A stretch of 64,000 bases of DNA from Schmidtea polychroa (Eukaryota), in the NCBI GenBank assembly GCA_044892525.1, contig CM097885.1, forward strand, positions 13,766,001-13,830,000, read 5' to 3'. This document shows positions 3,170 to 58,232 of the stretch, in pieces (within the stretch, counting starts at the first letter, position 1; each line of letters opens with the position of its first letter). Made by a program: the position numbers and the translations under genes. The notes beneath the pieces are model-generated. The model had not been told where the DNA came from. It saw nothing but the letters and a program-made list of their open reading frames with translations, and did not search any database.

Positions 3170-3652
3170 ATGGATGGCTTTATAAAAAAAATTGAACAGC
3201 TTTCAATGATTGACCCTTTAATTTTAAACAAGATTCAACAAAAAGAGAAGGCTTTTGAATTTGCAAGACTAAAGAGTGAAAACCCTAAAATGAATCAAAG
3301 TGAAATTTGTAAAATAATCGGTACTTCAGACTCGACGATGAGACGAATTAAAAAGGATTTAGGAATTGACTCTCCCTATAGGCATACAGGCAAGAAGAAA
3401 AAGACTAAAGAGACCAAGGGTGTTTATTGTAAGGATTGTTCAAGTACTGTACTTGATAAAAACCATCAATGCGTGAAGTCTAAAAAGTATCAAAGGTCCG
3501 AAGGTCGAAAACAAAAGAAAGATCCTTTAGGCTCTGGGCCTGGGACAGAAGTCTCTACGACTTTCGGAACGACCTCCTTCGGAACAGACCATTCTGGAGA
3601 TGTTGAAGATATTTTAGATCGAACTAGTATCATGTTTAAAAACTTTAAATAA
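3170..3652 (+). CDS. Helix-turn-helix DNA-binding protein with CxxC
   Basis: MNQSEICKIIGTSDSTMRRIKKDLG HTH pattern, basic NLS-like stretch, CKDC...HQC. Confidence 0.65.
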   Translation: MDGFIKKIEQLSMIDPLILNKIQQKEKAFEFARLKSENPKMNQSEICKIIGTSDSTMRRIKKDLGIDSPYRHTGKKKKTKETKGVYCKDCSSTVLDKNHQCVKSKKYQRSEGRKQKKDPLGSGPGTEVSTTFGTTSFGTDHSGDVEDILDRTSIMFKNFK

Positions 3653-3919
3653 ATGGACGAACGTGTTTTAAACCTGATAAAAAGTAATCCTATTATTAAA
3701 AAGGAATCGAGTATTGCATTAAAAGAATATAATGAGAAATCCCCAGAGGATAAAGCCCTGCAAGCCGCGCAACTTGCTATTCGAGAGCCTGTACTTATCT
3801 GGATTATAAATGATTTAGAGATTCAGTTGATGAGAATTCATAAAGAGATTAAAACCAGAAAGACTTTAGCCAAGGCAAACCGAGAGAAAATAAAAGAGAA
3901 AATAGAAAAGATGTTATAA
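3653..3919 (+). CDS. Polinton small helical hypothetical protein
   Basis: 88-aa ORF whose ATG directly follows the previous stop (TAAATG). Confidence 0.55.
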   Translation: MDERVLNLIKSNPIIKKESSIALKEYNEKSPEDKALQAAQLAIREPVLIWIINDLEIQLMRIHKEIKTRKTLAKANREKIKEKIEKML

Positions 3920-6900
3920 CTATAAAAGTAAAATTTTTATTATTGAAACAGATGGTTTATTTTTTAAAGCTTTAATAATATCAATCAATACTTTGTCATT
4001 TGTTAAAGACTTTAAGTTTTCAAAAATTGATTTTAAGGGTATTTCAGTCATTTTATAATTTATTTTTTAAACTTTCAGTCATTGATGACTGTTGATATCT
4101 TTTAATCTCCAGTCTATGATCTTCAAATTCTTTTTCTGACAGGTTTTGAATGTAATCGGGGTCAATGTTTAAATATTTAAAGTTTATATTTTCAAGTTTA
4201 GCTAATTGCACATCCGTGAAGTTTGTAGCATACAAGTCATTTAATCTTGGTAGGTTTTTTATTATTGGGATTAAATTATTCCCGATTGGAAGTGTTGTTT
4301 TCAAATCACTCAGTATACAGCGTTTATCATCATAATTTGATATTGCAACTTTATTTGACTCTTCTAAATACATGTTATGCCTCTCGGATTTAAGTTGATG
4401 AACTTCAACTATTTTATCTACATAGTTTTTATTTAGAGCGTCTTTATAGTCTTGATGTGTTAGTCTTTTCGATAGACATTTTTGTATTCCTTTACTTTTG
4501 TTTTCCTTAAAGACTTTATCATTGTCAAATACTACTACTGGTACCGAATATGTTTGATCATCGATCTTAATTGAATGGGTTTCAATCTTTCCAGCTTCAA
4601 CTGTTTCCAGTGAATATTGTTTAGACCTAATAAATACAGCACTAGTTATTGGAGTATTCGGCTTTTCATCCTTGAAGACGAATAAATCCCCAGTTGAATT
4701 TATTACCATGTTTAGGCTTTCATTTGCAGCTATTTCCTCTTTTAAGCTTGGGAAGTCTATAATGTTTTCTACTTTTAAAAACATACTGTCGGTATCCATT
4801 GCATGCATTGATATTCTATTTTTAAAATATGGTAGTAGTTTATCATAATAGGTTTCATACATTTGCAGTTTTGATAATTCTAAAACAGTGAAACCTATAA
4901 AGATTGGTTTGTTATAAGTCTTGACATTATTTTTCAATTCAATGGCTACAAGGTTCTTGGAGAATACTTCTGCATTTTTGAATGTAGGTTTTCCAATCAT
5001 TCGATTATACCTCTTAATATCCTTTGGAGTATTTGCTAATAATTCTACATGTGTATATTTTTCAACATTTTCCATTGTCTTTCCAAAGACTGAATTATTT
5101 GAAAGCTTATAAATCATATCAAAGTTAGCGTTTCCCATTCTTTTTGCCTCTTTCCTTTTGGCGATATTTCCCATTATAAAGGGTTTCATGAATGCAGTTT
5201 GTCTAAATTTTATGATTGAATGTACAGTTTTTAAAACCATTCCATGTGAAAGATAAAATTTTAATAATCTATAGTGACAAAGGTAATAACTCTTATCAGT
5301 TTGATCACATAAGAGCTTTACAGTTGTCGGTCGATCTTGTTCAATCTGCCAAGGTAAAAGTTCATTTGGATCTATTTTTCTTTTCACAGGTGCAAATGGA
5401 AAATTTCTAGTTGAAGATTTTATTTCATCAGGATATTCTAGATCACACTCTATAACATATCCTATTTCTGAATCCTTTTTAGTTGATAATATTTCTGTCA
5501 TAAGCTCTGGGACAGGACCCTCTGGGACAGCCACATATTCAAAACCATCAATTGGTAAATGTTGAGCCATTGATCCTGAATATAGGGCATTTGCATCTAT
5601 GTAGATAATCTCTGATGGATTATTTAAACCCTCCATTATTAAATTTAAATCCTCTTCTGTTTTTATTTCTACATAGTTTGCTTCAGGATCTTCACTAAAG
5701 AATTTCTTGTATAGAGTTGTAAAGTTGTTTGCAGTGATTTCTCGATCTCCCATCACGGAGCTAATACCTCCACGAATATTTTCTTTAAATAGATTAAACA
5801 TATCGATTTCAGTTAATAGTTCTATGGATCGAAAGGACTCACCTGGCTCTGTCCGCATTGTATATAATAAACAATCCCAAGATAAAGATGGAAAAGATAT
5901 ATAATTATAAGGCTTTAATTCAAATGCTTTGCAAAAATTCTCGAAACAATCTGCTAGGATATAAACATCAAGGGATAAATACATGTCAGTATATTCCCCC
6001 ATATTTTTACATTTGAAAAGTTCCCACATTTTATTCCCTCGGGTATATTCCTCATCACTTATATCCGTTTGATTTAATATTGAAAAAAACAAGTCTTGAG
6101 GAGGTAAAGATGTTTCATTATATCTATCAAAGGAGTCGATGTAATCATAAGGATAGATTCCTTTTGCCAAACAGGTTTTATATTCCTCCTGGGGAATATT
6201 ATTTTTTACTAATACTCTTTCTATTGTATGCTTAAAGTCTTCAGGTTTCATGGTTTTTGCTATTGCATCTAGTGACATTCCTAAAAAGTTTAGAGAATCT
6301 ATAAATTTTAAACACCCATATTGTACACATTTATATTTTTCCTTTGTCAGTCCTATAACCTTGAATGAGTTTTTAGCACTTACAGCTAGATGTTTTATAA
6401 ATAGGTGGATGTCATATCCAAAAAGATTATGGAATACAACTGGGATAAATCCAGGTCTTTTACAATTTAAGTTGCAATCCCTATGGGCTGCTCCCCTATA
6501 ATTATTTTCTTTTTTAAAGTGGTCATGGTCAGGGACTTTTATGTTTGCATGAAATAATATTTCTTCCTCTTCTTCAGCATTCAAACCCTCGAGACTTGGA
6601 GGATTAAATCCTTGTTTGCACACCCAGCAAGTTGTGCAGTCTTTATATTCCCCCCATTGTTGATCTGAAAAGTTTATTAAATTTTTTGTTTTTAATTTTT
6701 TAAAAAGTTTATGCTCTAAATCATTTATGGTTTTAGTGAAATGATCTAGGGTTTCTTCCTCTGAGGATCCTCTAAATGAAAATTCTTCAGAGTCTATAAG
6801 GTCAGGGTAATTACTTTTAAAAAATAGTTTATAAGCCGATGCCACTTGTTTTGTAAGTTTTACAGTGTAGGACTTATTATTTAATTTTAAAAGATCTTTC

Positions 6901-7633
6901 ATATCCTCCCATTTTGAAGATTTTAAAGAATCCAATAGATTATTTTTTTCTATTAATTTGAAATATTCCCGGTTTAGATCCTGTTTTATATTTATACCTT
7001 CAAAGTCACCATATATCACACCTAAGGTTTCTAGTAGGTTTGAAAAGTTTTTAAAATACATCTTTGCGTTTACAGGTAAAGGCATTTTAATTAAAGCCGG
7101 CAAGTTCTTACAACATAATCTTTCATGTTTAAATGCTGCACTGTCTGAAACCGAATAATGAAGACATCTTTTACAAGTTATTCCCCCTCTAACTTCTGTA
7201 TTTGATCTCATAAAAGCTTGAAAGTTTTTTATGAGGATATAGTGTTGTTTTCTTTCTTCTTGAGTTTCTTCTTCTTCTTCTGAAAGGATTAAATCTTCTT
7301 CTGAAAGGGCTTCAAACTCTGTAGCGCCTTCTTCCAATATTAAAAGATCTATTTCCCTATCTTGGTCACTATCTGAAATGTATATTGGAATGATGTTTTT
7401 CTTAAAATCATCATGATTATGGTACATGTATTCATAAATATTAATTTTGAGATTATTTAGACTTTCAAATTTTGGTACATCACAGATTTTCATTGGATGT
7501 TTAAAATCTTTTGGATATAACAATTCATTCTCATAAGGTTTGTATTTTGATACTCTTTGGGGGTTTGTAGCTTGAGGATGTATATATGCAAGGATCGCCC
7601 ATTGAAAACATTTATTATCACTATTTTCTACAT

Positions 7634-8555
<922 letters not shown>

Positions 8556-8641
8556 TTTTTAAAAATATTTTTTTATTGGGGTGGTGTGTTTTGGGTTTTT
8601 AAAATATATTTATAAATTAGCAAACTGCGCCAGCAGCTGTT

Positions 8642-8853
8642 AGTAGTGTTAGAACTATACACCTGAGCGCACCCTCATCTCTTCCCTTTCCATCGGGCTC
8701 GGACAGAGGGCTTTGTTTTGGGTTTTTTCGGTTAAAATATATTAAAACGTGTAAAAAAACTGTTGTTTTTTTATATTAAAGGGTAATAATTGAGGGCTTT
8801 GGAATTGGACGCTTTGCGGTGGGTGTGCTCAGGTGTATAGTTCTAACACTACT
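8642..8853. repeat. Polinton terminus: 33-bp inverted repeat (8642-8674 / 8821-8853)
   Basis: AGTAGTGTTAGAACTATACACCTGAGCGCACCC versus reverse complement of GGGTGTGCTCAGGTGTATAGTTCTAACACTACT, 1 mismatch. Confidence 0.9.
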
Positions 8854-13877: not shown

Positions 13878-15182
13878 ATGAAGAAATTAGTTTATATTTT
13901 ATTGCTGATAATTTTGACATTGAATTATTCGGCGCAAACTTATTTCGAAAGTGGCTTAATTGATGAGCCATGCCAAAAAAAGTGCCGATGTAAACACAAA
14001 GAAAATACCACAAAAATTCAGATGGCTTACTGCATTGTCGACGAGAAAGACACATTTGTGTCGTGTAATGTTGAATGGCCGATGTTGATGATGACGATTA
14101 AGAAACTTCGATTTAACGCCGATCTTCTTGCGCCTTGTCAACGGATCAGTCGATTACTGATTACGGCAGAAAGCGAATTGGTTGTTCTAATGCCGGAGAT
14201 GTTTAAATTCGTTTCCCGCCTCGAAATACTAGTTGTTCAATCTCCGGTTCAAACCATTGAAAATCAGTTTATGAAAAATTTTGTTTCCCTGAAAATTTTG
14301 GATATTTCTGAAACGAAAATCGAACATTTGTCAAGTGCAATGTTTTCCGTTTGCCCGGTGACTGAGAGAATTCGATTGAGTTCGAATCGGATTTCGGTTA
14401 TTGGGGATAAAACATTCGACAGTTGCAATCGAGTGGTTAATTTGGATCTAGGAAACAACCGACTAACGGCAATCCGTCGATTGACGTTCAGTGAAGGATA
14501 TAATTTGCAAACATTGGACCTGAATCGCAACCGAATTACGAGAATTGAAGATTTTAGTTTTAAGAATTTGAAGAAATTGAAAGTCCTAAATTTGCAAAGG
14601 AACCTTTTGAAGAGTATTAAATCTGAAATTTTATTCGGCTTGGAAAGTCTTCAGTATTTGTTTTTGAGTAAAAATAACATCGAAACAATTGATGAAGATT
14701 CTTTTGTTAATTTGAAATCTCTGAGAATGATCAATCTGGAAAATAATCCACTGCTTCGACCACATTTAACTTTATTCCTCAACCTTGACAAATTGACAGT
14801 GCTATTAACCGGAGTCAAATGTGTCAATGAGCAGTATTACGATTACACGAAGGTCTCAATTAATGTTTCGAAGGAGTTTGAGAAATATCCCCTTTGTTCT
14901 GGAATCCGAAAACGAAACGTGACGGGAGAAAATAAGCCTTTGATTCAAAATTCTGAATCGAAAAATCAACAGCCAAATCCGACAAAGGTTTGGAAAACCT
15001 CCGTCGGCCCGTCGATATTCGATCTCCATCCGTATTTATTCCCAATGATATTCGGAGGTCTGTCAGTTTTACTCATCTCCATCATTGTCATTGCTGTCGT
15101 GTGCCATGTTAAAAACCAACAGATTAATGAGTTGAGATTACAAGAATTACAAAACTTGCCCATGATGCAATCAACTTTGTAA
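13878..15182 (+). CDS. Single-exon leucine-rich-repeat type I transmembrane protein (host gene)
   Basis: Signal peptide, Cys-rich LRRNT (CQKKCRC), multiple LxxLxLxxNxI repeats, TM helix, short tail ending -STL. Confidence 0.93.
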   Translation: MKKLVYILLLIILTLNYSAQTYFESGLIDEPCQKKCRCKHKENTTKIQMAYCIVDEKDTFVSCNVEWPMLMMTIKKLRFNADLLAPCQRISRLLITAESELVVLMPEMFKFVSRLEILVVQSPVQTIENQFMKNFVSLKILDISETKIEHLSSAMFSVCPVTERIRLSSNRISVIGDKTFDSCNRVVNLDLGNNRLTAIRRLTFSEGYNLQTLDLNRNRITRIEDFSFKNLKKLKVLNLQRNLLKSIKSEILFGLESLQYLFLSKNNIETIDEDSFVNLKSLRMINLENNPLLRPHLTLFLNLDKLTVLLTGVKCVNEQYYDYTKVSINVSKEFEKYPLCSGIRKRNVTGENKPLIQNSESKNQQPNPTKVWKTSVGPSIFDLHPYLFPMIFGGLSVLLISIIVIAVVCHVKNQQINELRLQELQNLPMMQSTL

Positions 15183-23075: not shown

Positions 23076-25149
23076 CAATGCTTACTGTTAAAAAGGTTCT
23101 TGACAATATATGTTTTGTAACGGTCTGTAGAAGGAAATTGTTGCACCCAACCGAGTCGCATATAAAAATGTGTCAGAATGGCTAGTGGTGAATGTTATGT
23201 TTTAATGAAATTAATTCGTTTCGCTTAACAGAAAAAGTAACATTAAAAGAACAGCAATAAAAATATTAAATTCACAAGATTTATTAATAAATTAAAAGTA
23301 TGAAACCTTCAACCACTCTTCGGAAGATTAGCCAAATTTAGTTTCCTCAGTTCGTTAAAGAGATTTCTAAGAGTTTTCTAATTCCTTCTTTATTTCCAAA
23401 TTGTTTTTAACTCAACTTTTTGGATATATGTTTTCAATATTATTTGATCTCTATAAGTTGTTAATTAATTTACTATAAAATATTGGATTTTTCTTTACTT
23501 CGTCATTGATGATAGACAATAATAAATAATAACGATGACAAAAACGGGAGGGGCAGCACAGAGTCTAAAATACAACAGTATTGCACTTACAAAATCAATT
23601 ATAGAGTCCACAATTGTGAGCGATTCCACGTAAGTGGTCTATCAGAGAATTTACCTATGGGTTTCTACAAAAGGTTCATGTTCAATTGAAAATGTTTGCT
23701 TCTGGATGCCTGATTTTTTTTCTTTATTAAGTAACTTTTTGCTTTGAAGACTATCTTATTATTTTACCTTAAAGGTTCAAAATAGGTAGAAGTAAACCCG
23801 CGATGACTCATCATTTTTTATCAATTTTTTCTATGTCAGAACAAAGGCAATGAGTCATAACTATTAGTCATAAGTAGCTCAAGGTCATTGAGACAAAGTC
23901 AAGGACTCATAGTGAATTTGTTTTTATTAATATTTTGCGCTAAGTATTCAAGTATTTTTTTTAAATGATCGCTATCGTCTAATTTCTATTTTGGCTTTTT
24001 TTATACAACATGGGTATTTGACGAGAACTTTAAAAGTATTTTAAAACATTGCCAAAAGTTTCAAAAATTTCTGTTTTTAGACAAAGACCACCATCCCACT
24101 TACCGTCTTTTATTAAAATCAATAACAAAATCTGCTTAATATATTTATAAAAATTTTATCACCAAAACTTTTGTTGTAGATTATCATAATACGAGTATCT
24201 TTCATTAAGGAACCATATCTCTAAAGTCAATAAATAATAAAGATAGTTTTAATATTTTTGTTAATCATGCACTTGTATTGCAGACGTCTTTGTTAATCAT
24301 ACACTCAACAATCATGCCTCAATACATTGACCAATCACACTCATGCATTGAATGTATAAATATTGCGTTCTTGTCAATATTTTTTTATTAAAATGAATCA
24401 ATCGAACTTTGTTATAACTTTAATCAACGGGTTAATGTCAAATGAAGAAGAAAATTAAATTGTTTGAGAATCCTGGTATCTTATGCAGAGAAGTTAACAA
24501 AAGAAAACCACATTGATTTCCCCAGTATTCGCAATCAGAAATTCGTTAGACCAAAGGAATGTTACTTTATTCTCTTTTCGAAAGAAGCATGAATTGGTCA
24601 TGCGTCATAATGGCTGGTAGCATAACCTTAGATGTAAAAGATTTTATGGTTTTTGTTTATGAACCATGTTTACAATAAAACACATATTGAAATCATGATT
24701 CGATAATTTTACAATCGTCATCCATCGAATGTTTACAACTAGCATATATTCATGTCTTTGATGATGAATCTAATTGATCTTACCCTAATTAATTAGTTAA
24801 TTTTACTAATTCTACTAATATTATCCTTTTTTCGATAATAGTTAAGGAAAATAAATAGAAACCGCTATCCATGTGAAAATATTTCTCACATTAGTCACTA
24901 AACAATACAGTCAACAAAAGGTATCCCCTCTCTATTCGACAAAAAAATTGTGAGAGTCGAGGATTCCTATAGGATCTGTAGTACACATATCTATTTACTA
25001 TGTATTGCTCTATTGATTGACCTCAGAATAAATTTGTGTTACAATGGGACAAAATTGATCTATAGTCACATTGAAAATAAATGAAATGTTAAAAGAAAAC
25101 AAAAATAATTCAAAGGTGAACAATTTCAGTAATGTACATTTAAAATATT

Positions 25150-40035: not shown

Positions 40036-40976
40036 ATGGTTGCGATTAAAGTATGGTATTGAATTATTTTAATCCAAATATTTAATTGCTCCATTTTGAA
40101 TAGATTGGCATAATTGGTTGCATAGGATTATCCAAATTGTATATTTTCAAAAACGTTCTTAATAATGATATAACCATACCATTTGGTAATCTCTCAGGCA
40201 CTCTACAGCAGGGATTTATTCTTGACAAGCATTGTGTTCTCGTCAATAGACATGATCAAAACCACAGAATAAACCCTACGAATATTAACTATCGAGCTAA
40301 TTTGTGTGCATTGAAAAGCCTTAAATGTATTATTCCAATCATAAGTTGCGGTGGTTTACATAGTCATACAAAACCTGGAGATTTTGTAGTTTTTTGACAG
40401 AACAAATAAAAGAATTCAAACTTTCTATGATGGACAACCGAATCATCAAAAGGTCTTCTTCACATTCCAATGAGTGAGCCGTTTTGTGTGAGGGAACCCG
40501 TCAGGTATTAAAAATTTCATTTGACATATTTTTTTTTCAATGATTTTTAGATATTGATAAAAGTTGCTGCTCAAATTAGGCGAGGAAGTCCATAAATCTG
40601 GAACATTTGTTACCATAGAAGGATCACGGTTTTCTTCGAAATTCGAGTCGAAGTTTTGGAATTAATTGGGAGCTTCTGTTATCAATGTGACTACTATTCC
40701 CAAAGTGATTCTTGCCAAAAAATTATGCTTATATTATGCATCTTTGGCTATGGTGACTGATTACGACAGCCGGTTGGATAATGAGAATTCGGTAAATGTT
40801 CTAAAAGTTGCTAGTGTCATGAAATCCAATATCTAATGTATGAAAAGATTATTATTGAATTTTTTAAGTGACGAAGATTGGTTTGAAAATCTGAATAGAA
40901 ATAATGTAAATGATTTTTAATTTATTCGAGTGTTAATGTTACAATTATTTAGGATCTTCACGACTCTAATTTTTAA
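40036..40976 (+). pseudogene. MTAP: S-methyl-5'-thioadenosine phosphorylase pseudogene with introns
   Basis: MVAIK|IGIIG, PFG, RH...INYRANLCALK, PGDFV, DRT...FYDG, HIPMSEPFC, VTIEGSRFSS, LAMVTDYD; GT-AG introns at 40051-40103, ~40505-40550, ~40906-40952; frameshifts and in-frame stops. Confidence 0.92.
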
Positions 40977-41139
40977 AACAGACTTCTTTTTTGGTAAACC
41001 AAAAATTATTGAATATGTTGCTACAGAATAATAATTATAATTATAATAATAATAATAACAATAATAATAATAATAATATTAATAATAATAATAGTAATTA
41101 TAATAACAATAATAATAATTATAATAATAATAATAATAA

Positions 41140-42404
<1,265 letters not shown>

Positions 42405-42410
42405 TATAAT

Positions 42411-42466
<56 letters not shown>

Positions 42467-42473
42467 TAATAAT

Positions 42474-42527
<54 letters not shown>

Positions 42528-42559
42528 TATAATAATAATTATAAAAACATACCCATTTC

Positions 42560-43760
42560 ATTCCCAATTCCAAATCATAAGGCAGACACAATTGCCAGAA
42601 TCTTTGTAGAACAAATTGTATTTAGATATGGTGTTCCGACAAAATTGCTTACCGACAGAGGAAAGGATTTCATGAGTAATTTGTTAAAGAGTATAAATGA
42701 TTACTTTGCTATTTTAAAATTAAATACCTCACCATACCACCCACAGACGGATGGATTGGTAGAAAGGTTCAATGGAACCTTGGCAAACATGCTATCATCA
42801 TACGTAAACTCAGGTCAGACGGACTGGGATATACACATACCATCTTGTTTGTTTGCGTATAGAAATGCTGTTCATTCAGTAACTGGAGAAACACCTTTCT
42901 ATCTGATGTATTTAAGGCATAGCAAGATGCCAGTGGATCTTATATTTTATCCGAAAGCCTCACAGAATTGTGATGAAGGAAATTACTTATTCGAGATGAG
43001 AGAGAGAATGCAAGAAGCCTGGGAGAAAGCAGGCTTGAACATTCGTTATAATCAGGAAACAATGAAGGAATATCATGATCGTAAAGCAAAGGATCATGGA
43101 TTTTTGGTAGGAGATTATGTCATGTTAGAGGGACATTACAACAAAAAAGGTTTATCTCCAAAATTAATGAGAAATTACAAAGGGCCGTATCAAATTTTGA
43201 AAGTCACAGAAACCAATTTAGTCTTGCAGTTAGTGGCAAACAGAAAAGCAGAACCGATAATGGTTCATGCAAACAGATGTAAAAAGATAGCGCCACCAGA
43301 AACGGAGAAACCAAGATCAGAAATTAATGAATTCAAAATAGATAAGAAATCGAAAAAGAAAACGTTAGAATCATACAAAAGTATCCTAAAGGGACAACCG
43401 GAACGATACCCTTTACGATCTAGGCAAATCCCGAAAACAGTTACATTTCTAGCAGTGATTAGTTGTGTTATGATGATGGGACATGCATTTGAGGTATTCA
43501 CACCTAAAGCCAGTCAACATCTAGATATCGAATATCAACGAACAGATAGAGCGTTCAGATTTCATCTAACGAATATACAGTGGCATAGATATGACTTATA
43601 TTTGGTAGCTGCTGAAAGAGGGATATCATTTCACTTGAATACATGGGACCGAGTAAAAGTAATAAGAGGGACTTATGCCGAATACAAGTTATCTATTAGA
43701 AATCAAGACATTCTTTGCAGACCCAAACGTTTTAGCAGACGGAGGAGATTGTGTAGATAA
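42560..43760 (+). CDS. Gypsy integrase (5'-truncated) with C-terminal extension
   Basis: LLTDRG, SPYHPQTDGLVERFN, KGPY, RYPLRSR then a hydrophobic segment; the poly-N start of the listed ORF is microsatellite. Confidence 0.9.
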
Positions 43761-44415
43761 AGCAGCATGGATCTTGAAGACTGAAAAATTTACGAAAAAA
43801 GTGGAGATTTCATATCTCGGGCAGATAGTGAGATTTACTCATCCACGATGGAACAGAAATGATACATCTTCCACTCACGATTGGAGGACGAATAATAAAA
43901 TTGCGCTTATCGTCATATTAGAAAATGACCTGCGAGTCGAGAGATTAGTGCTCAATCATGCGTATCTAAGTAGAAGATGGAGAATCAAACCAGATACCGT
44001 GACAAAGGCGAATATTTCGTATTTGGAATTTACGGAGAGAACCGGTTGGTATACAATATATCAAGAAATAGTAAATCTAATACCTCCCACAAAGGGAAAA
44101 CTAGCTAGCAAAGAAGGAAAGGCTAGATTAGTGAGTATTCCTGGTTGTAAAGGAATAAATGCTCTGGATTGGTTTAGTATTAAAAAGGTAGCGAGTGTAA
44201 AACAGCCCCGCATAACTAAAATAATTAATAATTGTAGTTGTCAAAATACGTTAAAGGGGACAACAAGAGAAAAAACGGCAACATGGCTATTGTTAATTAT
44301 GATAGGGGGAGTAATTTGTATGATTTTAATTTTGCTATTAACCACCCTATGGATGTTTAGATTAAATATACGGGATATTCGTTATTGGGAAAATATTTAC
44401 GAAACCGAGGTATAG
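43675..44415 (+). CDS. env-like membrane protein (C-terminal TM helix)
   Basis: Sequons NDT, NIS, NCS; TM TATWLLLIMIGGVICMILILLLTTLWMF; located between integrase and the 3' LTR. Confidence 0.6.
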   Translation: MPNTSYLLEIKTFFADPNVLADGGDCVDKAAWILKTEKFTKKVEISYLGQIVRFTHPRWNRNDTSSTHDWRTNNKIALIVILENDLRVERLVLNHAYLSRRWRIKPDTVTKANISYLEFTERTGWYTIYQEIVNLIPPTKGKLASKEGKARLVSIPGCKGINALDWFSIKKVASVKQPRITKIINNCSCQNTLKGTTREKTATWLLLIMIGGVICMILILLLTTLWMFRLNIRDIRYWENIYETEV

Positions 44416-44616
44416 GGGGGAAAGTCTCACCATATACTAGGAAGTGTAAATATATATAGTTATTTATTTTATATGTTATTTATTTTAGTATGTAGACTAA
44501 TGTGGGCTCAAATGAGCATCGGTAAAATCAGACATCAGCGTATGTCGACTTTGGTTACCCTGCGAGGGTCTATCACGAAAGTGATAAAAGCTGTTAATTA
44601 TTTTATTTTTAGAAAA

Positions 44617-45135
44617 ATGAATTTTAACAGAGAACCAAAGCCACCAGTCAAAGCAAATCGACAACACCCACTGGCAACGTACAATTCCCAAACTCGAGTT
44701 GAAACTGAAGTGTATAGCACCTATAAAGAAGAGTATGTATATCGGTTCATCGGAACCACGGTAGCAGCAAAGATGAATCACCTCACCTCAAACTATTGGT
44801 ATTATCCCAGGAGAGTGGATATTCCAAACGACTTCAAATTCCCAGGAGGGCCTCGAAGGCAAATGATGGTAACGGTTATAAATAACCAAGGTAGATTAAA
44901 ATTGGCGGAACTATGTAGAGAGTATGGTTCATGTCCGAAATTGGAAAATATTTGGATCCATGCGATCAATAGGCCATTCACTGTGTTTATGGCGGGATTA
45001 GAGTTACCTGTTGAGTTAGAAAAACAGTGTACTCTGGAGATATACCACGCTGATGGACGAGAACGGAATATTATGATCCAGGCAGCGGCGGTGGGCACCA
45101 TAATCGCAGTAGAAATCTTAGACTTCTATATCTAA
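44617..45135 (+). CDS. Additional retrotransposon ORF of unknown function
   Basis: Open 172-codon frame after a TTTTAG acceptor-like site, upstream of the PPT. Confidence 0.55.
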   Translation: MNFNREPKPPVKANRQHPLATYNSQTRVETEVYSTYKEEYVYRFIGTTVAAKMNHLTSNYWYYPRRVDIPNDFKFPGGPRRQMMVTVINNQGRLKLAELCREYGSCPKLENIWIHAINRPFTVFMAGLELPVELEKQCTLEIYHADGRERNIMIQAAAVGTIIAVEILDFYI

Positions 45136-45380
45136 TCCAAGAGAGTTGCCACTCAACATGTGTCGTCGAATTCAAAATGTGTATAAAATGACTTATCTAT
45201 TATTTGATTTGTGCTATCCAGTGTTTTGACATTCATTATTTGTAATCTGAAACATTCATTTTGTGTTTTGTCTTATTTGATTAATTTTTATGTCTTATTG
45301 TAATACTGTTTATCAAAAGCCTTTCTTTAGTCTTGCTTTTGTCTTGTTTTCGAGACGAAAATCTTTTAGGGGGTAAGACT

Positions 45381-46463
45381 TGTTAGGGATAGGCCTAGGG
45401 CCTTGATTGTAAAATATATAAAGAATTACTATATTTAGAAATGGTATAAATAAAATAATAAAGAATTACCGAAAATAAAACATTAGAGTTAAATAATTAC
45501 TATAATTAGAATTAGGTAGTATATAGTAATATTTGATATTACTGTCACTATATATAGTAATTATAAAATTGCTATTAATATAATAAATAATTAAAATAGA
45601 ATATAAATACTTGTTCAAAACAAGAACCAAGGGACGATAAAACATAGAGAATAATTGAAACGGTAATTTGAGGACGAGAAACATTGAGAAGAATATACAA
45701 CGTATTTCAGAGAGAGAGACGATAAATTGAAAAGAAATAGTCTGGACGATTAAATTAGTTGATTATTGTGATTAAAGAATCACTGTGTTTATTTTAATTA
45801 ATTTCAACTCAACTCTGAGTTGTTTAAATTGGATATAAACAATAGCTCACACGCGAAGAAATTCCGGCTTCAATTTCAAATCAATATCAACGGAGAAATT
45901 CTACTATAAATTGATCATCAAATTAGTTGAGAGAGAGAAATAAGAAATTAGTCAAGAGCTAAGAATATTGTCGTCACAGAATTGTAAAGAAGATTGGTCT
46001 ACAACATTGTTTAACCATTCAGGTAGATTTGATTATCAAGGGATAAATTAGTATCCTGTTAAATAGGTAAAATTAAAGCGAACACAAAGTATAGATCTTT
46101 TACTTTAGTGTTCCCTGGAAGCCTCAAAATCATTCCCCCTTGCTTGCCCAACTCTTTTAGTCATATTGCGATCGTTGTGCTACACAGGAGCCATCGATTT
46201 CTTGCAGGCTGTGGTAAACAGTAAGGATTAATAAATCCGTTTTCTTGTACTCTTTGTACATATATTATAAAGTTCATTTGTAAATTATAAAATACATTTT
46301 TATAAAAAGAGAAAGGAGTTTTTGTTTTTAATTCAGTGATTTAAACTTAAACGCGCAACCACATTAAATATAACATATTTATATTTATTTTTATTTATTT
46401 ATCTTAATTAAATTATTGGAGTCGTTTGTGTTAGGATCTATAGTCCCCGTTTTCGATCTTAAC

Positions 46464-46464
<1 letters not shown>
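45381..46464 (+). repeat. LTR copy 2 (3' LTR)
   Basis: About 10 differences from LTR copy 1, counted by eye. Confidence 0.95.
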
Positions 46465-46516
<52 letters not shown>

Positions 46517-46523
46517 TAATAAC

Positions 46524-46592
<69 letters not shown>

Positions 46593-46959
46593 TATAATAA
46601 TAATTATAAAAACATACCCATTTCTTCATAAAAAAGTTTTTTTCATTAAATTGATTTCATAAATCATATAATTTGTTTTCATAAAAACTGGTTTCAGAAA
46701 AAAAAAATAAAAATTAATCATAAGAAATTTAATTATAAAAAATTTAAATCATAAAAATAATAATTACCTCATTTGAAAAATATATACAAAGTATTGATAA
46801 CATCTAACCAATCAGAATTGGATATTATCGATTCTTTGTTCTCTGAATATGACTCATCGATGAGTCATTGTTACTAACTGAGTAATTTCTACTCACATAA
46901 AGACATGCAATACAAGTGCAATACAAGTGCATGAAATGTCTTGATGTAAGTAATAATAC

Positions 46960-46991
<32 letters not shown>

Positions 46992-47091
46992 TTTATGACA
47001 ATACTAGTAATAATAATAATTAAATTAATAATATTTATGCCAATAATAATAATAATATATCAGACAAAGATTATTTAAATTAATACATTTA

Positions 47092-47592
47092 TTAAACAAT
47101 GAAATAATTGAAAATTAACAATGGCCATTTAAATATTGATGTACTCATAATTGCTGCCATCTTGTTTGAAATTGGTAACGTTGAATTGGTTTTCAAATTT
47201 TCTATCGATTCTTTTATTGTTCGAATTTCGAATATTATTAAATCAATCTTTCTTAACAAATGATCATGTTTCTTATCAATAATTTTCATATTCTTTATAT
47301 TTTCAACAATTGAGTTATTGAAAACCTCAATATGATCAATAAATTTAAATTTTATATTTTGTATATATTCAAAAGATAGGTCATAGCTGTTTTCTAAATT
47401 CTCCAATCTTTGAGATATTCTTTTTCCTGGATGCTTTGCCCATTTTGGTTTGTCAAGAATATATAAAATATCCATCAACTTGGCGGTATTTGGACAAATA
47501 CATATTGATTTATTAAAGGACTCCACCGTTATTGTTGTATTGTGTGAGCACACATTCCTTATAATAATTAGCAATAGAAATATAGTTTTCAT
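47092..47592 (-). CDS. Secreted or GPI-anchored coiled-coil protein
   Basis: Signal peptide MKTIFLLLIIIRNVCS, CICP, N-glycosylation sequons, heptad region, C-terminal hydrophobic tail IFKWPLLIFNYFIV. Confidence 0.7.
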   Translation of the reverse strand: MKTIFLLLIIIRNVCSHNTTITVESFNKSICICPNTAKLMDILYILDKPKWAKHPGKRISQRLENLENSYDLSFEYIQNIKFKFIDHIEVFNNSIVENIKNMKIIDKKHDHLLRKIDLIIFEIRTIKESIENLKTNSTLPISNKMAAIMSTSIFKWPLLIFNYFIV

Positions 47593-47701
47593 GTTGTATC
47601 AAATCTATTATGTTTTACATTTATAGTCTATCAACCAATCAGAATCATATTACACACACAGTAGTATAAATAAGACAGTATATTAAAAATTATTGTAAAA
47701 A
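47593..47701. promoter_or_regulatory. Compact bidirectional promoter
   Basis: TATAAA on minus strand (47620-47625), CCAAT (47635) and TATAAA on plus strand (47665-47670) between two divergent ATGs. Confidence 0.6.
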
Positions 47702-48156
<455 letters not shown>

Positions 48157-48259
48157 TATTATTAATATTACTTATTATTATAATTATTATTCAGTAGCGA
48201 CATACAATAAATTTTGGTTTACCAAAAAAAGAAGTCTGTTCTAAAAATTAGAGTCGTGT

Positions 48260-48922
48260 GATGAGTCTTTTTTTTAAAAATAAATTATTGGTCTTTGTTC
48301 AAAAAAGTCATCGATGAGTCATACTGGGGGGGGGGGGAGTATGCAAAAAAAAGAAAAAAGAAACCCCCTATCTAAACTATGAGTCATCGATGAGTCTTTG
48401 TCTATATATCTTTGTTTAAATGTCTTTGTTTAAATGTATTTATTTAATTATTTGTTTACATGTCTTTGTTTAAATATTTGTTTAAATATATTTATTTAAA
48501 TATTTGTTTAAATGTATTTATTTAAATTTTTGTTTTAATGTCTTTGTTTAAATATTAAATATGTCTTTGTTTAAAAAATGATGAGTCATATATACTTTGA
48601 TAATGAGTCAGTTAGCTTTGTTCCAAAAATGATATGACCTTCTTACTAAAATTAGAATGACCTTGATGAGTCATCTTCTTTGTTTAAAAATGATGAGTCA
48701 TCGGGCAGGATCAAAGGAGATGAGTCATATGTACTTTATTGATGAGTCATCGTCTTTGTTTAAAAATGATGAGTCATCGGATCTGGGCAAAAAGTGATTT
48801 GGATCAATGATCGGATCAAAAAATGATGAGTCGCCGATGAGTCATCGATTAGTCATATGTCTTTGTTTTGCGCTGAGTCATGGGGGGTATATGAAGAGTC
48901 ATGGAGCACACTTCCCTCTACT
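48260..48922. promoter_or_regulatory. Dense AP-1 (TGAGTCA) / HMG-box (CTTTGTT) / Fox-like (TGTTTA) motif array
   Basis: 11 perfect TGAGTCA counted (48315-48880) and about 10 CTTTGT sites. Confidence 0.7.
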
Positions 48923-49517
48923 GTTGATAAATTAAAACAAACATGTTTTTGTAATTTTCCTGATTTTAAAATTATTTGATGATAATAGGGAAAAATTTAC
49001 TTTTAACATCAATATTTTTGAATTTTTGATCTTTTAAATATAAAAAATATATAGAAATCAAAACAATTTAAATCAATGAAAACAAACTAATGCTGGTTCA
49101 AAAATTTCTGTTGTTTGATGATTAAAATTAATCTCAAAATTGCCACATCATGAATTCAAAATTATACAGAAATTAGCAATATGCAATCCGAAGCTGAGAA
49201 TTGGTGATTATCTTTCGGATTTCGAGTTTCAACTAAGGCATTATTAACAACAGGTTCATATGCGTACACGTGAAATTCCGTTTTGCATTGTAGTAGCGCT
49301 ATTCTTAGGCAATCCAATCTTGATTGATAGCCGACAATAAATGTTGTCTTTCAACATTCATTTTCATTATACCTTAGACACACAATGTTCATACATTCTG
49401 TTGAATTTTGGGGAAACACTACTGAGGTTCATATTTTTAAAATTTTTTTTTTAATGTAATGATTTCAAATCCAATTATATCCCGACGGAGCCCCCAAATT
49501 TGTGTGGTGGGTTGCAA

Positions 49518-50102
49518 GTAATCTACATTTTACCAATATTTATTTTGAGGATTTTTGATTTGGAAATATTTTGTAAATAATCTACATTTTACCAAAATTT
49601 ATTTTGAGAATTTTTGATTTGGAAATATTTTGTAAATATCTTATGTGTGATTTTTTCTAGTAATTTGTTGATTTTTTTTCCACCGCCAGTTCCTAGCGAG
49701 GTTGGCTGTGAAAATTTATAAACTACCGCGCCTGCCACTTCGGGGCGGACGTGTAGGTTGATGATTTTAATCTTCATATTTGTATAACTTGGACTTGCAT
49801 GTTTTGTGATTGATTTTAAAAATTAGACTTTAGTTTTTTGGACCTTTTTTAAAATTTTGATTTGTTAAATTTTGGGAACTTTGTTTTTGGGACTTTTTAA
49901 AATTTTGGGAAGAATAAATTTGGGAAAATTTTGAGTTTGGAAAATGTGGGAAAATAATATTGGTATTTTTAAAATTTTGGGAAATTTTGGGTCGAGAAAA
50001 TTTGGGAAATTTATTTTTGGGACTTTTTAAATTTTGGGAAAATTTAGAGTTGGGAAATTTATTTTAGGGATTTTTTGAGTTGGAAATATTTTGTAAATAT
50101 CC
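49518..50102. repeat. Degenerate tandem repeats (TTTGGGAAAATT-rich; AATCTACATTTTACCAA duplication)
   Basis: Repeated GGAAATATTTTGTAAATA and TTTTGGGACTTTTTAAA motifs. Confidence 0.6.
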
Positions 50103-50475: not shown

Positions 50476-50768
50476 TGTAAGGAGTCAGTAAATCTCTATA
50501 TAAGATTATTATGGTTAAATGGTAGAAGTGAGATCAGTTAGTAGAAATAATTATTTCTGTTAAATTTTTATATTTAAATTCTATATTAAATTATATCATA
50601 TTATATTAAATTATATTAAATTAAATCAATTAAATGTATGACCAGTAATTACATTAATATTAATAATTATCACGCCTCGGTGTTTAAATACTCTAGTAAA
50701 CGGCACAATTTTGAAGTTGTTATAAAAATAAATGATTGAAGAAAACTTGAATTTAATTGCGTCTAACA
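50476..50768 (+). repeat. 5' LTR
   Basis: TGTAAGGAG...GTCTAACA; about 4 mismatches to the split 3' LTR (55146-55303 + 57954-58092). Confidence 0.95.
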
Positions 50769-51798
50769 TGGCGACCACGACCACGGATTTATTGATAAGC
50801 AGACTATTACCTGAGAAATTTCACAAAGGCGATGATTTAGAAAATTTTATCAAGGATTGTCAAAGGTTTTATGGCGCGACAAAAACAACAATTAGGATGC
50901 AAGTAATATTAACTACAACATTACTTGAAAGATCGCTAATGGAAGATTATGAAGCAGCCGAAGGAAAAACTATGGAAGAGAAACTTCGATATGCATTTTC
51001 GAAACCGACATCATTAATGGATGATCTAAAAGAAGCTTTGAGTTATGAACAAGGATCAGATTCAGCCGAAACTTTTATAGAGAAAATTAAAAAGATGGCA
51101 AAGAAAATAATAGCGCACAAATGGGATGAAGAAGAAATAGAAAAATGCCTGCTTACAAACTGTGTAAGAGATCGAGAAGTTAAAAAAGAGATCGAGATGA
51201 AGGATTTGAAAACATCAGAAGAAATAAAAGCGACAATAAAGAAATTAGAAAAGGTAAACAAAATTATGGGCCATATTAATGTTGTGTGGACTTCACCGGT
51301 TGTTCAAAACTACAGAAGCTACAGAGATGTTGCTCAAAGAGGAATGGTAAACGGAAATAATAATTTCAAGCAGCGAAACGTCAGTAACCGACAATTGGAA
51401 TGCTGTACATGCAAGAAAACTGGTCATGTTAGTCAAGAATGCCAAATGAAAAAGAAAATGACGTGTTTTGCATGCGGAGTTGAAGGCGAGAATGTTCAAC
51501 GATTCAATGCCAGAGATGTTACTTACGTGGACACAAGGAGATTGACTGCTATACAAATTTGGAAAGAAGGAAGTTTCAAACTAATTCAAACATGAGAAAC
51601 AATAATTATTATGCCCATCGAACCACAAGCTATCAACAAAAGATCCACAATCCAGGAAGAACAATTGCAGCAATTGAAGCTAATGATGAGACGATGCCAC
51701 TTGAATATTCAGATGATGCAGAAGACAAATATGAGGATATTCAGCACCCAAAAGTACATGCTTCGACACGGGAGGCAATGATCGGAGCAATATACTAG
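50768..51798 (+). pseudogene. Gag with zinc knuckles (frameshifted)
   Basis: PEKFHKGDDLENFI; CCTCKKTGHVSQEC; CFACGVEG. Confidence 0.85.
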
Positions 51799-52143
51799 GT
51801 AATTTTGATATTGATGTAAATATTGGTCATAATAATTTTAATAATGTAAATATAATAATAATGTAGAACCTTTATGTAATAAAATTTGTAATTTTAAAAA
51901 GTTTCCTTTAAATAATTTTAAATGTTATTGTTATTTTAATGCTGATCGATCTTTAATAAATAATAATAATAATCTTAAGAATCAAGAAGAGTATAATGAA
52001 ATTAAAGAAGCAGAATATAATAATAAAATAGTAAATGAAAAAGTTTATAAATTTATTAAAAAGGCAGAAGATAAATTAGAGAGAAATGAAATCGGGTGGA
52101 TTAATGAAATATCAGAGAAGCAAAATATTTTCACTAAAGATGA

Positions 52144-55100
52144 ATGGAAACGACAAAACTGAGTTATGACAAAATGCAAGGTAGACCGAGTACAACTCTT
52201 GAAATTCATGGCTATAGAATGGAATGCTTACTAGATACAGGAGCAAGAGTAAATGTAATGGCAGAAGCAGTTGTGGACAAATTAGTGAATGTGAAAATCA
52301 TAAAAACAGATGAGATGTTAAGATGTGCAAATGATAGTAAATTAGAGACAATCGGAAAAATACATATTGATGTTAGAATTGGTAATATGAAAAGAAAAAT
52401 AATATTTATAATAGTTAAAAATATTGTTCCAGATATAATAGGCGGAGTGGAATTGCAGAAAGAGTTTGGAATTGAATTAAACTACATCAAGCAAAATGAA
52501 GAAGGATATAATGAATTTGTGTGTGAAATAGAAGCTAGATTTGGGGAAAAGATTACAGATAACGAGAGATGTCAAAAAGCAATAGAAATTCTAAGATTAA
52601 ACGAAAATAAAAGACTGTTAGAGATTGTTAAAAACAATAAAAGTGTTTTTATGGCTAATAACTAGGATATCGGATGTACTGATTTAATTGCACATAAAAT
52701 CATCACAAAAGAAGGGCCAATTATGATAAAACCCAGAAGACAACCCATCAATTTAGAAGAGAAAATAAATGCTGCTATAAAAAATTTAGAAAATAATGAT
52801 ATCATAAGAAGATGTAATTCACCTTGGAATACGCCGTTACTATGCGTGTGGAAAAAAGACAAAAAGATATCAGACTTTGTTTAGATTTTAGACAGCTTAA
52901 TAAGATTACTGAAAGACAAGCTTTTCCTATGCCGAATGTAAAAGAAATTCTAGATACATTACATGGATCTAAGTACTTTAGTTCTATAGACCTTGGGAAC
53001 GCTTATTATCAAGTGAAATTGGACATAGAATCGCAAGAAAAGACAGCATTTTTAACTAAAGAAGGGCAATTTTGTTTTAATAGAATACCTTTTGGCATTG
53101 CGGCGGCACCGGGTACATTCCAAGAATTAATGACAAAAAGATTGAAAGATCTATGGAAAGAAGGAGTTATGGTGTATTTAGACGATATTTTAATTTTTAC
53201 AAGAACAATTGAAGAACATTACAATGTGTTTGGAAAAGTTCTAGAGAAAATACGGGAAGCTAAATTGAGAATCAACCCAGAAAAATGTCAGTTATTAAAG
53301 AGCGAAGTAAAGTTTTTAGGGCACATTATTAACAGTCAGGGGATTCGGACAGATCAAAGTAAAATTGAGGCTATTAAATCATTTCAGAGGCCTAGGTGTA
53401 TAAAGAATTTGAGAAGCTTTTTAGATATATGTAACTATTATCGGAGATTTATTAAGGAATATGCAACAAAATCAAGAGCGCTAGAAAGCATATGTGGAAG
53501 CAATAGTGAAAAAATAATCTAGACTGAGGAATGTGAGAAAGCTTTCGAAGAAATGAAAATGGCGTTGACTACAGCGCCAATTCTCGTATTTCCAGATTTC
53601 AAGAAAGAATTCATATTAGATACAGACGCAAGCTTTGATACAATTGGAGCTGCATTATCACAAAGAGATGAAATGGGGCATGAACACGTTATTGCATATG
53701 GATCCCATGCAATGAGTAGCCATGAAAGAGGATATTGTATAACACGAAAAGAGCTTTTGGCTATATATTATTTCTGTCGCCATTTCAACCATTATTTATA
53801 CGGTAAACGGTTTGTTTTGCGCACTGATCATAAAGCAATAACTTTTATGTTAACGACAAAGAAACCTATAACAGCACAGTTCCAAACGTGGATAAATTAC
53901 TTGAGCAGTTTAGACATAAAAATGGAGTTCAGAAAAGGTACGGCGCATACGAATGAAGATATGCTGTCTAGAAATACATGCGGCAAATGTGTACAATGTT
54001 TGATGGACCATGATAATCCCAAATCAGGGCGATTAAAAACTAGATTGTTAACATTGATGACCGAAAATAATGGAAATGAATGGCAAAGAGATAATGCAGA
54101 AATACAAGATATAAAAGATCAAATAAATGAAAGGAAAAATAATAAATATATATTAAAAGGAAATATTATCTATACCAATCAAAACAAAATATGGATACCA
54201 GAAACAAAAAGACGAGAAATGATTAAGGAAACACATTTATTATAATGCCACGCAGGAGTAGAAAAAGTTATGAAATATATTAGGAACAATTTTGATATGG
54301 AAGATTTGCTAAATGAAGTAAAAGAGACTATTTCAATATGTGAAGCATGCCAGAAAAACAAAGTTTTAACTACAAAGTCAAAAGAAAAAACCCAAGTAAT
54401 TCAAGCTTCAGAACCTATGGAGAAAATATACATGGATATTTGCGGTCCATTAAGAGAAACCTTCAGAGGAGAAAAATATATTTGTGCAATAATCGATCAT
54501 TACAGTAAATACATATCTTTAACTCCTATTAGAAAGCAAGATGAAAATACAATAAAGGCAGTTTTGTTAAATAATTGGATATTGAAATTTGGAGCCCCTA
54601 AGGAACTACATGTTGATTGTGGAAAGAATATAGAAGCAAATAGAATTAAAGAACTAGCAAAGGCAGCAGGAATTGAGTTGATATTTTCGAGTCCGTATCA
54701 TCATAATACTAATGGTGTAATTGAAAGACAATTTCGTACTATAAGAGACTATATAAACGCGTCACACAGAGAAGGAGTTAAAAAAAGCTGGGCAGAATTA
54801 ATACGTTTTAAATGCAACAGCTCAAAAAACTACTAGAGTGAGTCCAGCAGAAATTATATTTGGAAGAAAGATTAATAGATCGCAATGGCATAGTAATAAT
54901 GAAGTGGATAGAAGTGGATAGAGGCTAAAAGACAGCAAGCGAAGGAAATTGACACAACAAGGAACTTAGAAGTGGGGGACAAAGTATTGGTGAAACAAGA
55001 AATTAGAAACAAAGATCACGAGAGATATGAAGGACCATACACAGTAATAAAACGAAATCATGAAAGAAGTTACTTATTAACAGACGAAAACGGGAGGAAA

Positions 55101-55150
55101 ATAGCGAGGAATATAGAAAAGTTAAAGCATTTTAAAGAAGGGGGATGTAA
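52144..55150 (+). pseudogene. Pol (protease, RT, RNase H, integrase) with stops and frameshifts
   Basis: LLDTGA; LCLDFRQLN, PFGI, YLDD; DTDAS, KELLAI, TDHKA; MDICGP, SPYHHNTNG, EGPY. Confidence 0.95.
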
Positions 55151-55623
55151 GGAGTTAGTAAATCTCTATATAAGATTATTATGGTTAAATGGTAGAAGTG
55201 AGATCAGTTAGTAGAAATAATTATTTCTGTTAAATTTTTATATTTAAATTCTATATTAAATTATATCATATTATATTAAATTATATTAAATTAAATCAAT
55301 TAACACATTGTGATCGGGCAGTTTTCGGCCACGTACTAGTGCTGGTAACGGGTGATTTTTCGCGCAATTTCGCGCTAACGTAGACCTCTAGAAAAATTGC
55401 GATAACTTCAAAAATATTTGTTTGATTTCAATAATTCTTTTTGCAAATTATTTATTTTATTTCATTTTATTTTATTATATTTAGAAATGTATTCTTTATC
55501 GTTAAACTAGTGCAGAATTTCATATAAAGCAGGAAAGTTATGAAAAAATTAATATTTTTTTTACATAACATCCTTTATTTTACAAATTATACACAAAAAT
55601 TATTTCTAAATGTAAAATAAAAA

Positions 55624-57304
55624 TTAGTATTGTTTTAGGGTGTGATATCTTTCAAAACATTTGCCCCTGTGTAGGGGAACTTCACAAAATTTGCATATGA
55701 AGCATGTTTCACTACGCACCTTGCGCGCTGAACAGACACGACATTGCCTTTGAACAAATTTCTTCTTTCCCTTGCTTTCAATTTTGGCTATCAATTGTTT
55801 GCGCATGTCCATGGAAAGCCTTCCAGGAGGATCACGAGAAGGAGCCCTTTTCCACGAAGATGTCGATGGCCCTGGATCTTCAGAAATAACTTCTTCATGA
55901 ATAGAATCGGAAGTCCATTCGAAGGCAATGTCATATAAAAATCTTTTATATTTAATCTTTTTAGTTGTAATGGAGTTGTATACAACAAAAGAATTGAATA
56001 AGGCACAATTTATCATATACATTGCCACATGTTTTGTCCATTTCGTGGTTTTTCTCAAAATATTGTAATACGATAAATATTGATCGGCACGATCGACGCC
56101 TTTCATATACTTATTGTAATCAATAAGGGCATTTGGCTTGATAATCTTTTGTCGCGTCATTCGGTCGACATTATGGCTCTCCTTCATTTCTGCAGAATGG
56201 ATAGAAGATATGAGAGATACCTCTTTCTTGGATTTCCAAACTTGTAACAATATATCATTTTTCCGACGGAATATTGTATCTCCTCTCTGTAAATCCGTTT
56301 TTTAGGCATTCAGGTAAGCCTCTATTTTTTCTAATGGTTCCACAAACCCTTATTTTCTTTTGTAAAAGCGCAACAGTATTGTCGACACTATTATAATAGT
56401 TATCCATATACAAATGGTGCCAGACATCAGTATAAGGCGAAACTACAGTTTGGATTGTTTCAATCAATCGTAGTCCTTGCGCAGCGTAAATTTCAAAATT
56501 ACAGATATATCCTGTATCACTCTCGGATAATATTCTCACGAGAATCCCGTACTTTATGATTTTTCAAGCATTGTACACCCTGAAGAATAGTCTTCCTCTC
56601 CATGATATTATGCCTTCATCCAATGAGACTTGCTGTTTTGGCTTGTAGATGTTTTTGAACTTTTCAACGAAGTGATTGATTATAGGTCTTACTTTTTCCA
56701 GACGATTAGATGGGTCAGTAATATTTTCATTGTTATTGAAATGCCAAGCGCGCCATATTTGGTTAAACCTATCTCTTGACATTGTTTTACCGAAAAACGG
56801 CGTATCTAAAACAGGATCTGTGGTCCAATATTCATTCCGTCTATCTTTCCGTACTAGCCCCATGAATATTATGAGACCTACAAACTTTTTCATTTCCGGA
56901 ATGGTGATATCTTTCCATTTGATACCTTTGGTTTGTGATTTTAGTCGGTCGATGTTTTGATAATAATATCTGTTGGATTCGATAACCAAAAACTTAAAAA
57001 AATCGTCGTCTATGAACAATTTCAACACATCCATCTGCGTTTTTGGAGGATTATTCAAGGTAATTCCAGGAATACCCAAAAGATCTTCAAGAACTTGGGG
57101 ATTATCATTTATAGACCAACCATCAACCTCTTCTTCGTCAGAACTGGACGAAATGGTTCTGCGGGTAAATGTTGTAGGCAGTGGAATAATATCTTCATCA
57201 TCAACTAGATCGCTATCATCACTATCAAAATCACTTTCACACGATATGTCGGATTGATCGTCGGCGTATATTTCTTGGTCACTATCTTCATGGTGGTGAG
57301 ACAT
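55624..57304 (-). pseudogene. piggyBac transposase (frameshifted into three ORFs)
   Basis: SLDEG, MDNYY, GTIRKNR, YNKYMKGVDRADQ; C-terminal Cys-rich CRVC...CKFC..PLH...CFERYH. Confidence 0.95.
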
Positions 57305-57457
57305 TTTTCTTATGGGATAAATAACAATATAATAATATAACTAATAAAAAAAATAACAAACTTTCAATCACAATCTTGGTAAAAATGTCTGTTTCATCGA
57401 AAATTTATCAAAAGTATTTATACTTTTAAACACTAAAATAAAATGAAAATATGTACG

Positions 57458-57586
<129 letters not shown>

Positions 57587-58232
57587 CTATGTACTCGATA
57601 TTTAGCTTTTAGCAACGTCCGACCACCAAAGAGTAGTGAAATAAACTAAAAAAATTATTATTCTTTGTCTTAGTGTTGCATGTAGACCGTTATATGTACC
57701 GTGTACTATTTTTGTGATGAATAACACTACCTCGGTACCTACCGTACACCCCATCTATTGTTCTCAAAAGGTTTTTACCTGCATGGGTACAACCCTACAG
57801 ACGCTATATAGCGAAAACTCAAGTATATTGGAACCCGCATTTTAACGTGACCCGCGCTCCACTAACAATCTATCAAAAACGTATAAATACGTGTTCCGCT
57901 CTCTAGCATTAATTTGCTAAACACGTATCAATACGTGATCCGATTACAATGTGCTAAATGTATGACCAGTAATTACATTAATATTAATAATTATCACTTC
58001 TCGGTGTTTAAATACTCTAGTAAACGGCACAATTTTGAAGTTGTTATAAAAATAAATGATTGAAGAAGACTTGAATTTAATTGCGTCTAACAACTATCAT
58101 TGCTTTTGGACTGTCGATCACGATGGAGTAGATTAGTAATTATGGTGGAACGGTTTTTAAGGGTAATCGATTCAATACAAAAGGTTTTGTTGGAACTGAA
58201 TAAAGGCAAAATCTGGTGTTTAAAGGTAACAG

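Follow-up and report, generated by a model that had tools for sequence, protein, structure and literature searches.

A dense array of AP-1-type sites lies in the 64-kb window (the whole stretch of DNA that was analysed), between a putative Bcl-2-like gene and a candidate element end (Table 1). With modest confidence we regard the array as a control region at the terminus of a truncated Maverick/Polinton-like element, one that carries its own early genes and would be driven by host bZIP proteins. The nearer target of the array is predicted to be the element's own genes rather than host neighbours.

Table 1. Features of the array, its adjoining genes and the diverged remnant (window coordinates)
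Feature	Position	Strand	Remark
Upstream module: CCAAT box, TCTTTGTT, two AP-1 sites forming a 20-bp palindrome (46849-46868), word common to the diverged copy	46806..46946	+	
Small gene without known family; hydrophobic at both ends, coiled-coil-like middle	47092..47592	-	
Promoter common to the two divergent genes: CCAAT box flanked on both sides by a TATA-like box	47633..47672	.	
Small Bcl-2-like gene (putative), first exon, running towards the array; then GT and TTA microsatellite	47702..47998	+	
TTA microsatellite, probably intronic to the Bcl-2-like gene	48005..48191	+	intron predicted
AP-1-type array (core GATGAGTCAT): 11 perfect sites and 5 with one mismatch, amid TCTTTGTT modules	48260..48905	+	
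Tandem array of the word TCTTTGTTTAAA, period 14/26 bp	48395..48555	+	period 14, 12.1 copies, 76%
11-mer AATGACCTTGA, nuclear-receptor-type extended half-site; other strand TCAAGGTCA	48656..48666	+	
Candidate element end CCCTCTACT (AGTAGAGGG from outside; AGTAGA)	48914..48922	+	42 bp past last AP-1 site
Diverged array copy: 2 perfect and 2 near-miss AP-1 sites, 2 CTTTGT, AATGACCTTGA, end word TTCTACCT	23784..23915	-	
Broken Bcl-2-like gene (putative), spread over three frames, interrupted by stops and preceded by a CCAAT-TATA promoter	24331..24640	+	right edge approximate

Motif composition of the array

The sequence-only reading had listed eleven perfect TGAGTCA sites in one block, and all are exactly where it put them (starts at 48315, 48380, 48582, 48604, 48667, 48694, 48721, 48743, 48770, 48838 and 48874). 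The enrichment is pronounced, as the 11 sites in the 646 bp of 48260-48905 compare with a mean of 0.09 and a maximum of 2 in 2000 dinucleotide shuffles, and none of 291 window tiles matched for GC holds more than 2. Half of the TGASTCA matches in the 64-kb window (11/22) fall inside the array. Within 48260-48905 the CRE TGACGTCA was not found (0 copies) and no GAATTC was seen by reading, and there were 0 Rfam matches in 46600-49400. An AP-1-type enhancer would be plausible.

The further motifs that had been named are also present, CTTTGTT and TGTTTA in 10 copies each, ATCAAAG once (48710) and TGACCT twice (48635 and 48658), and the putative binding words of the array include GATGAGTCATC and TCTTTGTT. 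A reading of these as four independent classes of factor is not supported. Seven of the 10 TGTTTA copies lie within a CTTTGTT word and all 10 within TTTGTTTA, and the tandem array at 48395-48555 is the source of most of the "Sox/TCF" and "Fox" matches; these matches are therefore repeats of a single word rather than several motifs interleaved, and that word could presumably suit either an HMG-box or a forkhead factor. The TCF word is found only the once. The TGACCT at 48635, a place that is occupied by an AP-1 core in the sister units, looks like a decayed AP-1 unit, and the TGACCT at 48658 belongs to TGACCTTGA, which we take to be a nuclear-receptor-type extended site, TCAAGGTCA being presumably of the NR5A/ERR type. 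Window-wide the 11-mer AATGACCTTGA is found only at 48656 (+) and at 23879 (-).

Adjoining genes, diverged copy and candidate end

The two small genes next to the array diverge from a common promoter, whose elements we take to be CCAAT and TATA-like boxes, and the arrangement of CCAAT to TATAAAT is found within the window only at 47633-47672 and at 24331. The ORF at 47702-47998 would seem, on weak but concordant evidence, to be a Bcl-2-like gene. It matches Pfam PF00452 with E=0.005, which is under the cut-off, as do 8/8 of the aligned family members (best E=0.0008, all under the 31.4-bit cut-off). In PDB the six top matches to a profile of the family are all chains of Bcl-2-related A1 (E 0.03-0.05), and the first match in the ESM Atlas is a Bcl-2 cluster (0.91, of low recognition value). 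The BH1 motif is degenerate. Models of the protein are of low confidence (pLDDT 43.7 and 48.5), and when used with Foldseek they gave no match at E<=0.001, Bcl-2-family chains making up 8 of the 32 rows listed (E>4). An anti-apoptotic role may be expected of such a product.

Seven relatives of this exon are found at 67-97% identity and in all of them the similarity stops after residue 99, each ending within 13 residues; the residue that follows is valine in 6/7 and the window reads GT at 47999, from which we infer a common splice site. No longer homologue was found among the exon's matches, and protein-based locus scans found no relative. The divergent ORF, 47092-47592, has four relatives at 80-84% identity and is possibly a surface protein. 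In front of this second gene, 1.4 kb from the array, the vocabulary of the array (CCAAT, TCTTTGTT and AP-1) recurs at 46806-46868.

A second, diverged remnant is found at 23784-24640. Among 613 tiles outside the block, 23784-23915 is the top match to the array (38, with the next locus at 35 and a median of 20), its last AP-1 site is 20 bp from TTCTACCT (AGGTAGA at 23784), and it has an 18-bp word in common with 46917-46934, in the same order. The broken Bcl-2-like gene gives a profile match at 24446-24568 (12.2 bits, E=0.0013; best of 20 shuffles 9.0 bits), and it runs away from the end, the gene of the 48922 remnant running towards it. The protein of the diverged copy has decayed far more than its array words. 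As array, end word, promoter and gene recur jointly, in one diverged copy, the array probably belongs to a mobile family; this joint recurrence is also the strongest evidence that the array words may outlast the sequence between them. Mobility had been proposed from the sequence alone, and it is supported by this second, diverged motif set with its Bcl-2-like remnant and by the relatives of the neighbouring genes at 67-97% identity. The same proposal made conservation of the motifs among copies a point on which it could fail, and AP-1, CTTTGT and AATGACCTTGA are kept in the one diverged copy.

Two further readings of this remnant were rejected: 23784 and 48922 are not the two ends of one element, as there is no mirror similarity and the flanks differ, and a BH2-like reading at 24033-24155 has no Pfam match.

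The position 48922 is probably an element end. GC is 0.44 inside and 0.15 outside (150 bp), a step in the top 0.1% of positions, and the fitted change point is at 48923-48926 (range 48915-48945); by chance, 3% of 60-bp windows would contain an end word of this kind. With up to 3 mismatches allowed, the 16-bp end word has a single occurrence in the 64-kb window, and no partner end was found there. Self-comparison of the 64 kb gave no mirror arm for this end, nor were paired terminal inverted repeats found for it within the window. The 6-bp flank of the end is absent before any other AGTA in the 64-kb window, and the opposite end is missing. In viral contigs the 16-bp word has 3 matches, of which 0/3 have AP-1 within 700 bp, and these were taken as chance.

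On its left the remnant, which runs from ~46800 to 48922, is cut off by a Gypsy element whose LTRs are 98.7% identical. This element (41140-46624) lacks gag and most of pol and has an env-like region, and behind each of its LTRs stand a TAA run and a short integrase-like piece, the same in both cases. It is inserted in the TAA run of an inverted 91% copy (40959-41140) of the microsatellite-to-array stretch 48076-48258, a copy that breaks where the array would start.

Several other elements are found in the window. A Polinton-like element at 780-8853 has a polymerase B gene broken by an AT run and ends in AGTAGT, with a 33-bp inverted copy of that end 212 bp inside, at 8642; it has AGTAG in common with the candidate end at 48922. 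An intact single-exon gene for a leucine-rich-repeat membrane protein of 434 aa (13878-15182) lies amid transposons and may be either a host gene or cargo. A decayed piece of a nucleoside phosphorylase gene is found at 40104-40850 (Pfam PNP_UDP_1, E=2.6e-06), which we take to be MTAP-like. A Gypsy element with an inserted piggyBac-type transposon (50476-58092) is flanked by repeats of 158 bp and 138 bp, and tandem arrays with units of 56-59 bp (49512-50100), which are degenerate and rich in TTTGGGAAAATT, seem to form the end of another repeat; 31 bp of them recur at 36276.

Affinities of the element and growth of the array

The Maverick identity is suggested by the candidate end and the accessory gene. 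Vertebrate Maverick ends are given as (AGT)2 or (AG)3 in the accessible text of PMC8097293, and Bcl2 homologues are reported from adintoviruses in the accessible text of PMC8502044; as far as these sources go, the remnants are like Mavericks and adintoviruses in having a candidate AG-type end word and small accessory genes that include a putative Bcl-2 homologue. They are unlike them in that core genes, a partner end and a target duplication were not found here, and in that the end word AGTAGA is a hybrid and not the canonical Maverick motif. The word of the diverged copy differs again (AGGTAGA at 23784), the GC change point coinciding with the end at 48922. Protein-primed polymerase B, integrase, capsid, ATPase and protease were not recognised in or beside either remnant, tblastx of the remnants against the polymerase-bearing element of the window gave no match, and the end region of that element (8300-8853) has 0 AP-1 sites. 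As no Maverick core gene was found the element is therefore not filed as a member; both remnants are fragments, however, and the absence of core genes thus speaks for these copies and not for the family. The literature searched, mostly without subscription papers, gave no account of AP-1 arrays at the ends of Mavericks.

Alternatively, the array could be the host-bZIP-driven control region of some other mobile element or endogenous DNA virus, such as a giant Gypsy LTR, a Helitron or the remnant of a large virus. The lack of a Maverick core gene fits this, as does the presence of AP-1 arrays in several virus-type contigs (8 loci), and giant planarian Burro retrotransposons have BCL2-like motifs according to the accessible part of PMC6431247. 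In that part of the source, however, the Burro motif lies within a polyprotein, whereas here the Bcl-2-like gene comes with a promoter and a start of its own; furthermore the window self-comparison shows no LTR partner, and by eye the end is neither TG..CA nor CTAG with a hairpin. We consider such an origin unlikely.

Arrays of bZIP sites are already known in animal DNA viruses, which limits the surprise of the present one. The accessible texts describe baculovirus hrs as holding clustered CRE/TRE bZIP sites (PMC13513840, PMC3230853), and the number of these sites tracks enhancer strength across seven hrs (PMC13513840). So far as those sources extend, the array resembles an hr in being several hundred bp of degenerate, bZIP-rich tandem units in a virus-like element; unlike an hr it lacks the 30-bp EcoRI palindrome, is of TRE type only and stands at the candidate end of an integrated remnant, so that the comparison is one of putative function only. 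The polyomavirus NCCR and the adenovirus ITR-packaging region, in the accessible part of bioRxiv 10.1101/2025.07.20.665756, are similar in shuffled blocks of variable copy number with activating AP-1 sites and in strong regulatory activity at a genome end, which in the present case is predicted and by analogy only. The array has far more AP-1 copies than these control regions from small DNA viruses of animals.

Eight viral loci with three spaced AP-1 sites were found, in several virus-type contigs, and of these L008 alone was compared with Pfam. L008, a baculovirus-type contig, has at 5914-6492, among baculovirus genes, an array of 29-bp units that hold 17 TGAGTCA together with CTTTG and TGACCT; immediately downstream of this array comes an FGF gene. 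Judged by eye, the repeats of L006 and L011 are of coding type, and two giant-virus-type contigs have short GATGAGTCAT arrays in non-coding-looking DNA (L009 18-126 and L010 5950-6051). The exact words of the cluster gave 0 matches in viral contigs and 0 in metagenome contigs. Among the matches listed in a sequencing-run search, part of the stretch was found in 8/16 and half of its words in 0, with no RNA run among them.

The array would appear to have grown as short modules (GATGAGTCAT, TCTTTGTT and GGATC) were duplicated locally, with the binding words kept and drift in the spacers. The duplicated module that had been noticed on first reading is real, being 42 bp at 48663/48739 with 97.6% identity; a 54-bp duplication at 48580/48719 is 81% identical, and a 27-bp period runs through 48664-48779. 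At least three of the AP-1 sites come from recent local duplication, and the 11 are therefore not independent. Local duplication is also the reason for their single orientation, a claim of the sequence-only reading that, the site being a near-palindrome, touches no more than its central base.

Positions -2, -1 and +7 of the AP-1 sites, which were not used in picking them, are kept in 9, 10 and 10 of the 11, and agreement over the 20-bp flanks is 6.7/20 between array sites compared with 6.1/20 among unrelated sites. With the three recent duplicates left out, which was our own choice, 20/24 positions agree compared with 77/160 (Fisher p=0.002), an optimistic value as the comparison is ungapped and the units are related. 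Three of the spacings between sites are of 11, and slippage of an 11-bp unit could yield the same pattern of conservation. The array may differ from a fresh tandem repeat, with a core conserved beyond its flanks, and this is suggestive only; the conserved span is presumably the known bZIP core. A neutral minisatellite, in which a chance TGAGTCA founder word was amplified by slippage and duplication with no regulatory role, would explain the tandem periods of 14, 26 and 27, the near-exact internal duplications and the one orientation, in a region of the genome that is rich in simple repeats. It would leave unexplained the sharp edge of conservation round the high-affinity core, and the recurrence of the same words at two other places, one a promoter-like module 1.4 kb off and the other a copy in which decay of the protein has gone much further, and it seems to us quite unlikely.

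Predicted control and host injury responses

If the array is the control region of a Maverick-like element, host bZIP dimers (of Jun/Fos type, or ATF/Maf relatives) would bind the ATGAGTCAT cores in numbers, with help from a nuclear receptor and from either an HMG-box or a forkhead factor. Recruitment of these host proteins, as by baculovirus hr enhancers, would switch on the early genes of the element under stress signalling, and the Bcl-2-like early product would keep the cell alive.

The sequence-only reading had gone further, to an injury- or regeneration-responsive enhancer that could also act on host neighbours. That the present copy now serves the host in this way on its neighbouring genes is, in our view, very unlikely. 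The extreme density of AP-1 (11 compared with a mean of 0.09) would suit it, and the accessible part of bioRxiv 10.1101/2022.05.06.490982 describes transposon-derived zebrafish regeneration enhancers with AP-1 motifs, so that within the reach of that source the two are alike in motif and in transposon origin. There, however, E-boxes are necessary together with AP-1, whereas the array has no excess of them (2, compared with a mean of 2.07). Furthermore the surroundings are mostly transposon remnants with no intact host gene recognised nearby, the sole Pfam match among 82 short ORFs scanned being the decayed phosphorylase-family piece, and planarian Polintons, which are open during differentiation, are targets of piRNA and silenced by it according to the accessible text of PMC8532177. 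Sites for a replication or packaging protein of the element, with the AP-1 match incidental, would suit the adjoining candidate genome end and palindromic arrangements such as 46849-46868, and are highly improbable since the conserved span also stands next to CCAAT and TATA boxes at a distance from the end and no candidate for such a protein is available.

It can be speculated that there is a lineage of Maverick-like elements in a regenerating animal whose ends carry a terminal enhancer array for wound signals (JNK/AP-1), in which injury would switch the element on, the Bcl-2-like gene would shield the cell from wound-induced death and scattered ends would seed injury-responsive enhancers in the host; as a whole this is a tentative and rather doubtful proposal. 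A dense, family-conserved array at the end would be a direct candidate for the switch of integrated Mavericks, and would tie their activation to the stress signalling of the host. If the host is a regenerating flatworm, such ends may be a ready source of injury-responsive regulatory DNA.
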